DNA of 64,000 nucleotides from Escherichia coli (lineage in GTDB: Bacteria > Pseudomonadota > Gammaproteobacteria > Enterobacterales > Enterobacteriaceae), in assembly GCF_044324785.1 (NCBI RefSeq), contig NZ_CP172127.1. One strand, written 5' to 3'. The first letter of the stretch is position 1. Every line of letters starts with the position of its first letter. Position numbers and translations under genes: made by a program. This document shows positions 44,642 to 56,878 of this stretch, one piece after another. The notes beneath the pieces were generated by a model, which made no database searches, was not told where the DNA came from, and saw only the letters and a list, made by a program, of their open reading frames with translations.

Positions 44642-44718
44642 GGCTACGTAGCTCAGTTGGTTAGAGCACATCACTCATAATGATGGGGTCACAGGTTCGA
44701 ATCCCGTCGTAGCCACCA
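44642..44718 (+). tRNA. metT: tRNA-Met (CAU), elongator type
   Basis: 77-nt cloverleaf-compatible sequence, anticodon loop CTCATAA, 3' CCA encoded. Confidence 0.9.
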
Positions 44719-44726
44719 TCTTTTTT

Positions 44727-44811
44727 GCGGGAGTGGCGAAATTGGTAGACGCACCAGATTTAGGTTCTGGCGCCGCAAGGTGTGCGAGTTCAAGTCTCGC
44801 CTCCCGCACCA
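44727..44811 (+). tRNA. leuW: tRNA-Leu (UAG)
   Basis: 85-nt sequence with long variable arm, anticodon loop TTTAGGT, CCA end. Confidence 0.9.
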
Positions 44812-44834
44812 TTCACCAGAAAGCGTTGTACGGA

Positions 44835-44909
44835 TGGGGTATCGCCAAGCGGTAAGGCACCGGTTTTTGATACCGGCATTCCCTGGTTCGAATCCAGGTA
44901 CCCCAGCCA
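44835..44909 (+). tRNA. glnU: tRNA-Gln (UUG)
   Basis: 75-nt sequence, anticodon stem CCGGT/ACCGG with loop TTTTGAT, CCA end. Confidence 0.9.
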
Positions 44910-44924
44910 TCGAAGAAACAATCT

Positions 44925-45001
44925 GGCTACGTAGCTCAGTTGGTTAGAGCACATCACTCATAATGATGGGGTCACAGGTTCGAATCCCGTCGTAGCCACC
45001 A
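44925..45001 (+). tRNA. metU: tRNA-Met (CAU), elongator type, second copy
   Basis: Identical to 44642..44718. Confidence 0.9.
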
Positions 45002-45049
45002 AATTCTGAATGTGTCGAATAAGTTCGGCAAATTCACAAACCAATTTGT

Positions 45050-45124
45050 TGGGGTATCGCCAAGCGGTAAGGCACCGGATTCTGATTCCGGCATTCCGAG
45101 GTTCGAATCCTCGTACCCCAGCCA
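45050..45124 (+). tRNA. glnV: tRNA-Gln (CUG)
   Basis: 75-nt sequence, anticodon loop TTCTGAT, CCA end. Confidence 0.9.
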
Positions 45125-50672: not shown

Positions 50673-52211
50673 ATGGCTTTTGCCTCATTAATTGAACGCC
50701 AGCGCATTCGCCTGCTGCTGGCGTTATTATTCGGTGCCTGCGGAACGCTGGCCTTCTCTCCTTACGACGTCTGGCCTGCGGCGATTATTTCGCTGATGGG
50801 GCTTCAGGCGCTGACCTTTAACCGCCGTCCACTCCAGTCTGCCGCTATTGGCTTTTGCTGGGGATTTGGCCTCTTTGGCAGCGGTATTAACTGGGTCTAT
50901 GTCAGCATCGCGACTTTTGGTGGAATGCCTGGCCCGGTTAACATCTTCTTGGTGGTGCTGCTGGCGGCGTATTTGTCGCTGTATACCGGACTGTTTGCTG
51001 GCGTGCTGTCGCGTCTGTGGCCGAAAACCACCTGGCTGCGCGTGGCGATTGCCGCCCCTGCTCTCTGGCAAGTGACCGAGTTTCTGCGCGGTTGGGTGCT
51101 GACTGGTTTCCCGTGGTTACAGTTCGGCTATAGCCAGATTGATGGCCCGTTAAAAGGGCTGGCACCGATAATGGGCGTGGAAGCCATTAACTTCCTGCTA
51201 ATGATGGTTAGCGGCCTGCTGGCACTGGCGTTGGTCAAACGCAACTGGCGTCCGATGGTGGTGGCCGTCGTGCTGTTCGCCCTTCCCTTCCCGCTGCGTT
51301 ACATCCAGTGGTTTACCCCGCAACCGGAGAAAACCATTCAGGTTTCGATGGTTCAGGGCGATATTCCGCAATCGCTGAAGTGGGACGAAAGCCAGCTTCT
51401 TAATACGCTGAAAATTTATTACAACGCGACGGCACCGCTGATGGGCAAATCGTCGCTGATTATCTGGCCGGAGTCGGCGATAACCGATCTGGAAATTAAT
51501 CAGCAACCGTTCCTCAAAGCACTGGACGGTGAGTTGCGCGATAAAGGTAGCTCGCTGGTAACCGGGATTGTCGACGCGCGTCTCAATAAGCAGAACCGCT
51601 ACGATACCTACAACACCATCATCACGCTGGGTAAAGGTGCACCGTACAGCTACGAATCAGCCGATCGCTATAACAAAAACCATCTGGTGCCGTTTGGCGA
51701 GTTTGTCCCGCTGGAGTCGATTCTGCGTCCGTTAGCGCCGTTCTTTGATCTGCCGATGTCGTCGTTCAGCCGTGGGCCATATATCCAGCCGCCGCTGTCG
51801 GTAAATGGTATTGAGCTTACTGCGGCTATTTGCTACGAGATCATTCTCGGCGAGCAAGTGCGCGATAACTTCCGCCCGGATACCGACTATCTGCTGACTA
51901 TCTCCAACGATGCGTGGTTTGGTAAGTCTATTGGTCCATGGCAGCACTTCCAGATGGCGCGAATGCGTGCGCTGGAGCTGGCGCGCCCATTGCTGCGTAG
52001 CACCAACAACGGTATTACGGCGGTGATTGGCCCGCAGGGTGAGATTCAGGCAATGATCCCGCAGTTCACCCGCGAAGTGTTGACCACTAACGTGACTCCG
52101 ACCACCGGACTTACACCGTACGCACGTACCGGCAACTGGCCTCTGTGGGTGCTGACGGCACTGTTTGGTTTTGCTGCTGTGCTGATGAGCCTGCGTCAAC
52201 GACGTAAATAA
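50673..52211 (+). CDS. lnt: Apolipoprotein N-acyltransferase
   Basis: 512-aa ORF, N-terminal polytopic region plus nitrilase-like domain. Confidence 0.95.
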
Positions 52212-52223
52212 TCCCTTCTTATC

Positions 52224-52284
52224 GTGCCGGAATACATCCCGTATTTCGGCACGCTCACCGGATGCGGCATCAGTGCGTTATCCG
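52224..52284. repeat. REP-like palindromic units after lnt
   Basis: GTGCCGGaatacatcccgtattTCGGCAC hairpin followed by CCGGATGCGGCATCAGTGCGTTATCCGG. Confidence 0.5.
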
Positions 52285-52607
52285 GATAACAAAATTCCCC
52301 TATCCAACTTTGGCACATCTATTGCTTTGTTATACAAGGCAAAGCTTGAACCAGCATCAGTACAACCCGATTGCACCACAGCAATCCACGGGTAGCACCA
52401 AAAGAGTGCATTTTAAGAATTTTGCTTCGGAATGGTGCGGCGCATCTCGCAAAAACAAACAATAAAACATCAATATCTTTACATTTAGCCAAACTAAATG
52501 TTACCTAACAAGCACAACACTGCACAATAAAGTTGCAGATGATAACAACACAAACACTCACAACGGGTATCCATGCGTTCTTAACGCAGAAGATAAAGGA
52601 GTTGGAT

Positions 52608-53516
52608 ATGCAATTACGTAAACCTGCCACAGCAATCCTGGCCCTGGCGCTTTCCGCAGGACTGGCACAGGCAGATGACGCCGCCCCGGCAGCGGGCAGT
52701 ACTCTGGACAAAATCGCCAAAAACGGTGTGATTGTCGTCGGTCACCGTGAATCTTCAGTGCCTTTCTCTTATTACGACAATCAGCAAAAAGTGGTGGGTT
52801 ACTCGCAGGATTACTCCAACGCCATTGTTGAAGCAGTGAAAAAGAAACTCAACAAACCGGACTTGCAGGTAAAACTGATTCCGATTACCTCACAAAACCG
52901 TATTCCGCTGCTGCAAAACGGCACTTTTGATTTTGAATGTGGCTCTACCACCAACAACGTCGAACGCCAAAAACAGGCGGCTTTCTCTGACACTATTTTC
53001 GTGGTCGGTACGCGCCTGCTGACCAAAAAGGGCGGCGATATCAAAGATTTTGCCGACCTGAAAGGCAAAGCCGTAGTCGTCACTTCCGGCACTACCTCTG
53101 AAGTTTTGCTCAACAAATTGAATGAAGAGCAAAAAATGAATATGCGCATCATCAGCGCCAAAGATCACGGTGACTCTTTCCGCACCCTGGAAAGCGGTCG
53201 TGCTGTTGCCTTTATGATGGATGACGCTCTGCTGGCCGGTGAACGTGCGAAAGCGAAGAAACCAGACAACTGGGATATCGTCGGCAAGCCGCAGTCTCAG
53301 GAAGCCTACGGTTGCATGTTGCGTAAAGATGATCCGCAGTTCAAAAAGCTGATGGATGACACCATCGCGCAGGTGCAGACCTCCGGTGAAGCGGAAAAAT
53401 GGTTTGATAAGTGGTTTAAAAATCCCATTCCGCCGAAAAACCTGAACATGAATTTCGAGCTGTCAGACGAAATGAAAGCACTGTTCAAAGAACCGAATGA
53501 TAAGGCACTGAACTAA
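52608..53516 (+). CDS. gltI: Glutamate/aspartate ABC transporter periplasmic binding protein
   Basis: ATG at 52608 after AAAGGA RBS; signal peptide MQLRKPATAILALALSAGLAQA; 302 aa. Confidence 0.9.
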   Translation: MQLRKPATAILALALSAGLAQADDAAPAAGSTLDKIAKNGVIVVGHRESSVPFSYYDNQQKVVGYSQDYSNAIVEAVKKKLNKPDLQVKLIPITSQNRIPLLQNGTFDFECGSTTNNVERQKQAAFSDTIFVVGTRLLTKKGGDIKDFADLKGKAVVVTSGTTSEVLLNKLNEEQKMNMRIISAKDHGDSFRTLESGRAVAFMMDDALLAGERAKAKKPDNWDIVGKPQSQEAYGCMLRKDDPQFKKLMDDTIAQVQTSGEAEKWFDKWFKNPIPPKNLNMNFELSDEMKALFKEPNDKALN

Positions 53517-53672
53517 TTACAAGAACCAGGGGCGGAAATTCCAGCCCTCTCGATTGTTACGTAGCACGGACAGACTATACGCCTGATGGTCGTTCCCCAT
53601 CGGGCCTGAAAACCGCAATACGCTGGGTAACAATCTTCGAGGGTAGCAGTTAACGCTGCTACCCTCTTTTTT
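53512..53672 (+). ncRNA. sroC: Candidate SroC sRNA (processed from gltI-gltJ spacer)
   Basis: 169-bp gltI-gltJ intergenic region ending in strong terminator; SroC is described at this position in E. coli/Salmonella; 5' end not determinable from sequence. Confidence 0.4.
53637..53670 (+). terminator. Intrinsic terminator in gltI-gltJ spacer
   Basis: GAGGGTAGCAGttaacGCTGCTACCCTCTTTTTT. Confidence 0.8.
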
Positions 53673-53685
53673 CTGGAGTAGATTT

Positions 53686-54426
53686 ATGTCTATAGACTGG
53701 AACTGGGGTATTTTTTTACAACAAGCCCCGTTCGGCAACACCACCTATCTTGGTTGGATCTGGAGTGGTTTTCAGGTGACGATCGCTTTGTCGATCTGCG
53801 CCTGGATTATCGCTTTCCTCGTCGGTTCATTTTTCGGCATTTTACGTACCGTTCCAAACCGTTTTCTCTCCGGTCTGGGTACGTTGTATGTCGAACTGTT
53901 CCGCAACGTGCCGTTGATTGTGCAATTCTTTACCTGGTATCTGGTGATCCCGGAGTTGCTGCCAGAGAAAATCGGCATGTGGTTTAAGGCCGAACTGGAT
54001 CCCAATATTCAGTTTTTCCTTTCATCCATGCTCTGCCTGGGGCTGTTTACCGCCGCCCGTGTTTGCGAACAGCTACGCGCCGCGATTCAGTCGTTGCCGC
54101 GTGGGCAGAAGAATGCCGCGCTGGCGATGGGTCTGACGCTACCGCAGGCTTACCGCTACGTACTGCTGCCTAATGCTTATCGCGTTATCGTCCCGCCGAT
54201 GACCTCAGAGATGATGAACCTGGTGAAAAACTCCGCCATCGCCTCGACCATCGGTCTGGTAGATATGGCAGCGCAGGCCGGTAAATTGCTTGATTACTCA
54301 GCCCACGCCTGGGAGTCGTTTACCGCCATTACGCTTGCGTATGTGTTGATTAACGCTTTTATCATGCTGGTGATGACGCTGGTTGAACGTAAAGTTCGCC
54401 TGCCTGGCAACATGGGGGGCAAATAA
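53686..54426 (+). CDS. gltJ: Glutamate/aspartate ABC transporter permease
   Basis: 246-aa membrane ORF with ABC permease EAA-like loop. Confidence 0.9.
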
Positions 54427-55100
54427 TGTACGAGTTTGACTGGAGTTCCATTGTCCCTTCCCTGCCATATCTGCTGGATGGGCTGGTGATCACCCTGAAA
54501 ATCACCGTCACGGCAGTCGTGATTGGTATTTTGTGGGGCACCATGCTGGCGGTGATGCGCTTGTCCAGCTTTGCGCCTGTTGCGTGGTTTGCCAAAGCCT
54601 ACGTTAACGTATTCCGCTCGATTCCTTTAGTCATGGTTTTGCTGTGGTTTTACCTGATTGTGCCGGGTTTTCTGCAAAACGTGCTGGGATTATCGCCAAA
54701 AAATGATATCCGTTTAATTTCGGCGATGGTGGCGTTTTCGATGTTTGAAGCGGCCTACTATTCAGAGATTATCCGCGCCGGTATTCAAAGTATTTCCCGT
54801 GGTCAGTCGAGCGCCGCGCTGGCGTTGGGGATGACTCACTGGCAGTCGATGAAACTGATTATTCTGCCGCAGGCTTTCCGCGCGATGGTGCCGCTGCTGC
54901 TCACTCAGGGCATCGTACTGTTTCAGGATACCTCACTGGTGTATGTGTTATCTCTGGCCGATTTCTTCCGTACCGCCTCAACCATTGGTGAGCGTGATGG
55001 TACGCAGGTTGAGATGATCCTGTTTGCCGGATTTGTTTATTTCGTTATTAGCCTTAGCGCGTCGTTGTTGGTCAGCTACTTGAAAAGAAGGACAGCATAA
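54426..55100 (+). CDS. gltK: Glutamate/aspartate ABC transporter permease
   Basis: 224-aa membrane ORF; start overlaps gltJ stop. Confidence 0.9.
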
Positions 55101-55825
55101 TGATTACCCTGAAAAATGTTTCAAAATGGTATGGTCACTTTCAGGTGCTGACCGACTGCTCAACCGAAGTGAAAAAAGGCGAAGTGGTGGTGGTTTGCGG
55201 CCCGTCTGGTTCCGGCAAATCAACGCTGATTAAAACCGTCAACGGCCTCGAACCGGTGCAGCAAGGTGAAATTACCGTCGATGGCATCGTGGTTAACGAT
55301 AAGAAAACCGATCTGGCAAAGCTGCGTTCCCGCGTCGGGATGGTGTTCCAGCATTTCGAGTTGTTCCCCCATTTGTCGATTATTGAAAACCTGACCCTGG
55401 CGCAGGTGAAAGTGCTTAAACGCGATAAAGCACCCGCTCGTGAAAAAGCATTGAAATTGCTGGAGCGCGTCGGGCTTTCCGCACATGCCAATAAATTTCC
55501 GGCGCAGCTTTCCGGCGGTCAGCAGCAGCGTGTGGCGATCGCTCGCGCATTGTGTATGGATCCTATTGCCATGCTGTTCGACGAACCGACATCGGCGCTG
55601 GATCCGGAGATGATCAACGAAGTGCTGGACGTGATGGTGGAACTGGCGAACGAAGGAATGACCATGATGGTGGTGACCCACGAAATGGGCTTTGCCCGTA
55701 AAGTGGCGAATCGGGTGATCTTTATGGATGAGGGTAAAATTGTCGAAGACTCGCCGAAAGATGCGTTCTTCGATGATCCGAAATCGGACCGCGCAAAAGA
55801 CTTCCTCGCGAAAATTCTGCATTAA
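55100..55825 (+). CDS. gltL: Glutamate/aspartate ABC transporter ATP-binding protein
   Basis: 241-aa ORF with Walker [10 protein letters not shown], signature LSGGQQQR, Walker [12 protein letters not shown]. Confidence 0.95.
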
Positions 55826-55832
55826 TCACTCT

Positions 55833-55855
55833 GGCGCGCATACCCAAGTGCGCGC
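55833..55855 (+). terminator. Possible hairpin after gltL
   Basis: GGCGCGCAtacccaagTGCGCGCC; no clear U-tract. Confidence 0.3.
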
Positions 55856-55942
55856 CATCTCACGCTTTATCGTTTCGCTCCTCGTATCTGTTACATCCTG
55901 GCGTTACCCTTGTCGCAAAGAAGCACACAACAAGGAGCAACA

Positions 55943-56878
55943 ATGGCACTGCCAATTCTGTTAGATTGCGACCCAGGTCATGATGACGCTATCGCAATAG
56001 TTCTCGCCCTCGCCTCACCAGAGCTTGATGTCAAAGCAATTACGTCTTCCGCCGGAAACCAGACACCAGAAAAAACCTTACGCAATGTTCTGCGTATGCT
56101 GACCTTGCTTAATCGCACCGATATTCCGGTGGCAGGCGGCGCGGTAAAACCGTTAATGCGTGAGTTGATTATCGCGGACAATGTGCACGGCGAAAGCGGT
56201 CTCGACGGCCCGGCATTACCGGAACCGACGTTTGCACCGCAAAAGTGTACGGCGGTGGAGCTGATGGCGAAAACGCTACGTGAAAGTGCGGAACCTGTCA
56301 CGATTGTGTCTACCGGACCGCAAACTAACGTTGCCTTGCTGCTCAATAGCCATCCGGAACTGCATAGCAAAATTGCTCGTATCGTGATTATGGGTGGCGC
56401 AATGGGGCTTGGTAACTGGACGCCTGCGGCTGAATTTAATATTTACGTTGACCCGGAAGCGGCAGAAATTGTTTTCCAGTCAGGGATCCCGGTGGTGATG
56501 GCCGGTCTGGATGTTACTCACAAAGCACAAATTCACGTTGAGGACACCGAGCGTTTCCGCGCCATTGGCAACCCTGTTTCAACCATTGTTGCCGAACTGC
56601 TGGATTTCTTCCTCGAATATCATAAAGACGAAAAATGGGGCTTTGTCGGCGCACCGCTGCATGACCCATGCACCATCGCCTGGCTGTTAAAACCGGAGTT
56701 GTTTACCACTGTTGAGCGCTGGGTTGGCGTGGAAACACAAGGGAAATATACCCAGGGTATGACGGTTGTTGATTATTATTATCTGACCGGCAATAAACCG
56801 AATGCTACTGTAATGGTCGATGTTGATCGTCAGGGCTTTGTTGATTTACTGGCTGATCGTCTGAAATTTTACGCTTAA
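55943..56878 (+). CDS. rihA: Pyrimidine-specific ribonucleoside hydrolase
   Basis: Start [16 protein letters not shown] at 55943 (nucleoside hydrolase DxDxxxDD motif); 311 aa. Confidence 0.9.

Follow-up and report, generated by a model that had tools for sequence, protein, structure and literature searches.

sroC, the gene of the GcvB sponge RNA SroC, in the gltI-gltJ spacer of an Escherichia coli genome

SroC was discovered in 2003 and its mechanism was explained in 2015; it is the founding mRNA-derived sponge controlling GcvB, a small RNA that regulates about 1% of the E. coli genes. In Salmonella, SroC lacks a promoter of its own and is a processed, 5'-monophosphorylated RNA that begins inside the gltI coding sequence (Miyakoshi, Chao & Vogel 2015, PMC4474525). 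Cleavage by RNase E, which depends on a 5' monophosphate and needs Hfq to be accurate, generates this 5' end; a leaky, conserved Rho-independent terminator provides the 3' end of SroC and gives rise to a monocistronic gltI mRNA and to the full-length gltIJKL mRNA (PMC4474525). Two SroC sites, 7 and 8 nt long and separated by 14 nt, pair with GcvB (PMC4474525, restated in PMC10250213), and compensatory mutations (SroC C63 and C87 combined with GcvB G160 and G14) demonstrated that this pairing drives the RNase E-dependent decay of GcvB, with SroC itself staying stable (PMC4474525). In E. coli, expression of SroC cuts GcvB's half-life from more than 16 min to 3.8 min, the half-life of SroC being more than 16 min (PMC10250213), and the K-12 sequence is known as a 163-nt Hfq-associated species with a half-life of more than 16-32 min (PMC9438474, PMC10250213, PMC4474525). 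By RIL-seq, up to about 70% of GcvB was found in SroC chimeras in stationary phase (PMC9299463). A review lists MgrR as a second sponged small RNA and fliE and flhBAE as mRNA targets of SroC (PMC9438474).

For the window analysed here, a stretch of 64,000 nucleotides from an E. coli genome (assembly GCF_044324785.1, contig NZ_CP172127.1), the identity and location of the element, its structure and covariation, the terminator and both complementarities to GcvB were computed. A search of the whole window against Rfam 15 yielded a single non-tRNA match, to sroC (RF00369), which covers model positions 1-163 of 163 with a score of 174.8 bits (gathering score, 45 bits) and an E-value of 7.4e-37. When positions 53500-53700 were aligned to K-12 MG1655, all 163 bases were the same as in the K-12 gene b4763, which lies between gltI and gltJ and is annotated in RefSeq (686681-686843) as an ncRNA, sroC, 'small regulatory RNA SroC'; the one mismatch in the aligned region, at 53501, is a synonymous position inside gltI. 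The K-12 annotation has sroC sharing 5 nt with the end of gltI; here its 5' end falls within the last gltI codons, and gltI, sroC and gltJ are all encoded on the plus strand (Table 1). A spacer of 169 bp (53517-53685) separates the end of the gltI stop codon, at 53516, from the gltJ ATG at 53686.

Table 1 Features of the sroC locus, in window coordinates
Feature	Position	Strand	Basis
gltI 5'UTR element AACAACACAAACACTCACAAC, C/A-rich and complementary to G/U-rich GcvB R1	52544-52564	+	Duplex prediction
gltI	52608-53516	+	ORF; annotated gltI in N3 and K-12
sroC, SroC small RNA, 163 nt by K-12 annotation	53512-53674	+	Rfam RF00369, K-12 identity
Stem-loop 1 (SroC nt 18-37)	53529-53548	+	MFE and centroid fold
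Stem-loop 2 (SroC nt 41-124), long irregular hairpin that holds both GcvB-pairing sites	53552-53635	+	MFE fold
GcvB-pairing site GGACAGAC (SroC nt 57-64), internal bulge of stem-loop 2	53568-53575	+	Complement of GcvB R3/SL4 nt 156-163
GcvB-pairing site UCGUUCC (SroC nt 79-85), apical loop of stem-loop 2	53590-53596	+	Complement of GcvB SL1 nt 13-19
Rho-independent terminator	stem 53639-53666, T6 53667-53672	+	Terminator consensus scan, fold
gltJ-gltK-gltL	53686-54426, 54426-55100, 55100-55825	+	ORFs; annotation in N3 and K-12

A preliminary description of this DNA, made from the letters alone, had proposed SroC for the interval 53512-53672 within a gltI-gltJ spacer of 169 bp. The open reading frames return the same spacer length, the interval is almost exactly the extent given by Rfam and K-12, and the alignment to annotated sroC, together with the family score and the shared position between gltI and gltJ, bears out the proposed identity. 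We are all but certain that this is sroC, which encodes the Hfq-dependent SroC and is embedded in the gltI 3'UTR within the gltIJKL operon, the Hfq dependence of the RNA being taken from the literature; no evidence against this identification was found among the analyses made. The gene is already known, and a copy identical to that of K-12 holds no new biology. The case serves as a quality control, in which a reader of raw sequence recognised a known 3'UTR-derived small RNA from its anatomy and context.

The region is chromosomal: a 401-bp query spanning the locus matched, at identities of at least 95%, 5421 of the 5426 complete E. coli genomes searched, nearly always in one copy per genome and under gltI and gltJ annotations. 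Strain N3 is 100% identical over the query, and its record carries no sroC feature, which is a matter of record annotation and not of sequence. In PMC4474525, the Salmonella nucleotide numbers (C63, C87, G84) are higher by 3 than those of the K-12 annotation. Because this offset is not accompanied by a length difference between E. coli and Salmonella in the 5' part of the sroC alignment, it is the mapped 5' ends that differ by 3 nt between the sources, and the true 5' end of SroC could be 53509 instead of 53512.

Two differences from K-12 were observed elsewhere in the window. In the lnt-gltI intergenic region, at about 52501-52508 and some 100 bp upstream of where gltI starts (ATG at 52608), the site that is occupied in K-12 MG1655 by IS5D (insH3) is empty. 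The window aligns to K-12 on either side of this element of 1195 bp, the two alignments overlapping by 8 nt where they meet, and the intergenic part upstream of the insertion point is 94.6% identical to K-12, compared with 100% for sroC. The context of the gltI/SroC promoter in K-12 may differ from that in most E. coli. The second difference is a tRNA cluster at 44642-45124 (+), which comprises five genes (Met-CAU, Leu-UAG, Gln-UUG, Met-CAU, Gln-CUG); the K-12 counterpart has seven (metT-leuW-glnU-glnW-metU-glnV-glnX), and the strain analysed here has a single copy of each tRNA-Gln gene that is tandemly doubled in K-12.

The RNA encoded in the spacer is highly structured, as the preliminary description had supposed. 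The minimum free energy of 53512-53672 is -66.3 kcal/mol, compared with -40.5 +/- 3.7 kcal/mol for dinucleotide shuffles (z = -7.0), and none of 200 shuffles was equally stable. The RNA is predicted to fold into stem-loop 1, which is short, the long and irregular stem-loop 2, and the hairpin of the terminator. Homologues were collected by a DNA-pattern scan of species-representative genomes with a 15-base RNA core, which returned 58 true homologues at 70-100% identity, plus chance matches in unrelated phyla, and 57 sequences from about 15 enterobacterial genera were aligned. Homologues occur in Escherichia, Salmonella, Citrobacter, Kluyvera, Enterobacter, Klebsiella/Raoultella, Kosakonia, Phytobacter, Siccibacter, Pluralibacter, Lelliottia, Huaxiibacter, Superficieibacter, and Intestinirhabdus. 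A tblastn check of eight loci from other species, with every unusual one among them, placed the element between gltI and gltJ each time.

Across the 57-sequence alignment, 88.5% of the cells of the three-hairpin structure are paired, compared with 37-54% when the partners are slid by 1-3 columns. Changes on both sides of a pair affect 16 pairs and 162 cells, compared with 60 +/- 8 cells in shuffles, none of which reached 162 in 500 trials. Helix 1 is paired in 87.6% of cells, with two pairs in which both sides have changed; the apical helix of stem-loop 2 is paired in 97.3%, with covariation in six of its nine pairs, and six of the 13 pairs of the basal helix covary as well. Covariation in the enterobacterial homologues supports the SroC structure.

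Some relatives depart from the common layout. Spacers of 230-291 bp separate gltI from gltJ in Citrobacter braakii (L028:1862-2155(-)), Phytobacter (L090:1623-1912(-) and L097:520-810(+)), and Intestinirhabdus (L042:805-1037(-)). In the C. braakii and Phytobacter loci, about 120 nt of structured sequence, with inverted repeats such as CCCGGG...CCGGG and no convincing ORF, are inserted after the conserved 5' motif AACTAATTAA and before stem-loop 1. In Siccibacter (L016:3488-3730(-) and L051:11875-12119(+)), the descending strand of stem-loop 2 contains an insertion of about 75 nt, and the GcvB-pairing loop shows a T-to-C change (GGCCGTTCCCC) at the first base of the 7-nt site that pairs with GcvB SL1. 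The idea that Siccibacter has a shortened, terminator-less homologue like the Yersinia case in PMC4474525 was rejected, the terminator being intact.

The terminator is by far the longest and strongest terminator-like site found by the consensus scan in 52000-56500. Its stem is made of 12 pairs (11 Watson-Crick and one G-U, with seven G-C), closed by a 4-nt loop and followed by TTTTTT; the hairpin alone has a predicted energy of -22.7 kcal/mol, and at the sequence level the terminator is kept in 57 of 57 homologues, including both from Siccibacter. Its U-tail is presumably the expected Hfq-binding module. The position of the terminator would make it the 3' end shared by SroC and the monocistronic gltI mRNA, and gltJ-gltK-gltL would be expressed only via read-through of it. 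On the plus strand of 52000-56500, no sigma-70-like promoter was found, which is consistent with SroC having no promoter of its own.

The hairpin and U-tract had been placed in the preliminary description at 53637-53670, no more than 2 nt away at each end from where we find them (53639-53672), and had been held to terminate most transcripts before gltJ and so to release a stable 3' fragment. A strong terminator is indeed present; that it stops most transcripts is not readable from sequence, and it is called leaky in PMC4474525. Nor does termination alone release the fragment, RNase E cleavage being required (PMC4474525).

At the top of the terminator (53647-53658, columns 166-179 of the 57-sequence alignment), Escherichia and Kluyvera carry an additional 10-13 nt, which in E. 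coli are the 12 nt CAGTTAACGCTG in place of a single C. With these extra nucleotides the stem grows from about 7-8 bp to 12 bp, the short form, GGGTAGCGCTGCTACCC, being that of the remaining genera. The longer E. coli stem could strengthen termination and hence the yield of SroC.

The terminator also bears on the possibility that the spacer is, in addition, a cis-acting regulated attenuator. UCUCG (53548-53552) and CGAGG (53638-53642) would then form a transient helix that masks part of the terminator in the nascent RNA and, alone or with a bound factor, sets the read-through into gltJKL and the amount of SroC. CGAGG is the base of the 5' arm of the terminator, and the consensus structure of RF00369 in Rfam draws exactly this helix (SroC 37-41 with 127-131) and omits the terminator hairpin. 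In our predictions, it is the minimum free energy structure of nascent prefixes of 132-143 nt, and in the ensemble of nt 1-140 three of its five pairs have probabilities of 0.86-0.87, with 0.60 for G41-C127 and 0.07 for U37-G131. However, the helix is worth only about 2 kcal/mol in the nascent fold, and after transcription of the 3' arm the fold containing the terminator is favoured by 26 kcal/mol (-66.3 vs -40.4 kcal/mol).

The two strands of this helix, CCCTCTCGATTG and AATCTTCGAGGGTAG, are nearly unchanged over about 15 genera, which exceeds what a stem requires, and the helix is formable in 94.7% of the cells, with one compensatory change, from U-A to C-G, in Intestinirhabdus. Against it, the U39-A129 pair is broken in 11 sequences, which include the Klebsiella/Raoultella group, and 56 of 500 shuffles were equally good; because both strands are near-invariant, covariation gives no signal on the helix. 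The authors of PMC4474525 raised regulated termination as a possibility and noted the extra conserved nucleotides, but no ligand, factor or condition is known. Taken together, we consider a regulated attenuator unlikely. We give the same low credence to the proposal that the near-invariant segments CCCUCUCGAUUG (53545-53556) and AAUCUUCGAGGGUAG (53632-53646) beside stem-loop 2 are conserved beyond the needs of structure and tune read-through of the SroC terminator via a transient anti-terminator-like helix or the binding of a factor. If this were true, the GltI:GltJKL ratio and the levels of SroC and GcvB would be coupled to some signal.

The identification of the element as sroC extends to its GcvB-pairing sites. 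The bulge site is a perfect 8-bp Watson-Crick complement to its K-12 GcvB partner, with a predicted duplex energy of -12.6 to -15.3 kcal/mol; the site in the apical loop is a perfect 7-bp complement to K-12 GcvB and is predicted to be wholly unpaired (P = 1.00). The two sites are 14 nt apart in SroC, and their partners are about 137 nt apart in GcvB. The C at 53571 (C60 in K-12 numbering) corresponds to C63 of Salmonella SroC, the partner of GcvB G160, and the C at 53595 (C84 in K-12 numbering) to Salmonella C87, the partner of GcvB G14. With the numbering offset of +3, both sites coincide with the published positions, and their predicted placement in a single-stranded loop and bulge agrees with the probing data in PMC4474525. 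The apical loop GGTCGTTCCCC is unchanged in 55 of the 57 homologues, the search pattern having left the loop unconstrained.

By itself, the short complementarity between SroC and GcvB is only marginally above chance: four perfect stretches of at least 7 nt are present where 1.4 are expected, a count matched by about 6% of dinucleotide shuffles. Since complementarity alone is not statistically unusual, the pairing claim rests on its agreement with the published mutational data. A third perfect 8-nt complement, between SroC nt 101-108 (ACCGCAAU, 53612-53619) and GcvB 189-196 in the GcvB terminator stem, equals the validated R3 site in length, and SroC 146-152 is a perfect complement of GcvB 114-120. 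Both lie in stems or terminators and are probably due to chance, the GcvB stretch 189-196 being buried.

Whole-molecule duplexes of GcvB with SroC or with the gltI 5'UTR were unrealistically long, intramolecular structure being ignored, so local windows were used. The C/A-rich element of the gltI 5'UTR is predicted to form an extended duplex with GcvB nt 61-95 (-38.2 kcal/mol), and a GcvB target site in the gltI 5'UTR has been described, with a 'delta-CA' mutant (PMC4474525). We infer that this C/A-rich stretch is the GcvB repression site on the gltI mRNA, which would close the feedback loop.

The invariance of the pairing sites is also what weighs against a purely local role, in which the spacer would do no more than terminate transcription between the cistrons and stabilise the 3' end, so raising GltI over GltJKL, and its RNA would be an inert decay intermediate with no trans function. 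Such a role has its attractions, as periplasmic binding proteins of ABC transporters are commonly over-produced relative to the membrane components (discussed in PMC4474525) and the terminator hairpin would shield the 3' end of the gltI mRNA. However, a plain stabiliser has no need of an apical loop and a bulge that stay invariant amid covarying stems, and point mutations at both sites abolish the destabilisation of GcvB, which compensatory GcvB mutations restore (PMC4474525). As the sole explanation, a pure cis role is refuted by the published compensatory mutations and the loop invariance, and we hold it to be highly improbable; a role in stoichiometry is not exclusive of the trans role and probably coexists with it. 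A small protein encoded on the opposite strand (ORF 53517-53744 (-), 75 aa, GTG start) is present in the six-frame ORF list and is rejected with next to no remaining credence, as it is unannotated in K-12 and in the 100%-identical strain N3, runs over the gltJ start, and is incompatible with homologue indels that are not multiples of three (1-nt spacer gaps, and the insertions of about 75 and 120 nt) and with substitutions that track RNA base-pair compensation and not codon structure.

For sroC as the gene of a GcvB sponge, we propose the following course, in which processing, Hfq dependence, GcvB decay and physiology are derived from the literature. Transcription from the gltI promoter would either stop at the terminator or read on into gltJKL. 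Terminated transcripts would be degraded from the 5' side by RNase E, halting at about 53509-53512, and the remaining RNA, about 163 nt long and 5'-monophosphorylated, would be tightly folded and very stable. Stem-loop 2 of this RNA would expose the bulge site and the loop site to GcvB nt 156-163 and 13-19, respectively, and in the presence of Hfq their pairing with GcvB would lead RNase E to cut GcvB; SroC would survive, hence a catalytic action. Loss of GcvB would lift repression from many mRNAs for amino-acid transport and metabolism, including that of gltI, and the circuit would thereby feed forward.

Compared with the SroC of K-12 and Salmonella (RF00369, b4763), the copy described here has the same position, strand, three-hairpin architecture, terminator and pair of GcvB sites. 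The K-12 locus differs in carrying IS5D upstream of gltI, and the RNA itself is no different. CpxQ, SdhX, NarS, MalH and OppZ are, like SroC, RNase E-cut 3' ends of mRNAs that share the terminator of the mRNA, bind Hfq and have a 5' monophosphate (PMC9438474, PMC10250213). Unlike these RNAs, SroC ends at an operon-internal terminator and not in the 3'UTR of the last gene of an operon, its main target is a small RNA (GcvB, and also MgrR) instead of mRNAs, and it does not decay together with its target. The tRNA-spacer sponge 3'ETS-leuZ is also a by-product that pairs with an Hfq-dependent small RNA and lowers its activity. The same likeness holds for the chbBC spacer, a transcript by-product that pairs with the Hfq-dependent ChiX and lowers its activity. 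The decay of ChiX on chbBC proceeds by opening of its terminator and PNPase, whereas SroC brings about RNase E cleavage of GcvB via two additive short pairings, a contrast drawn in PMC4474525.
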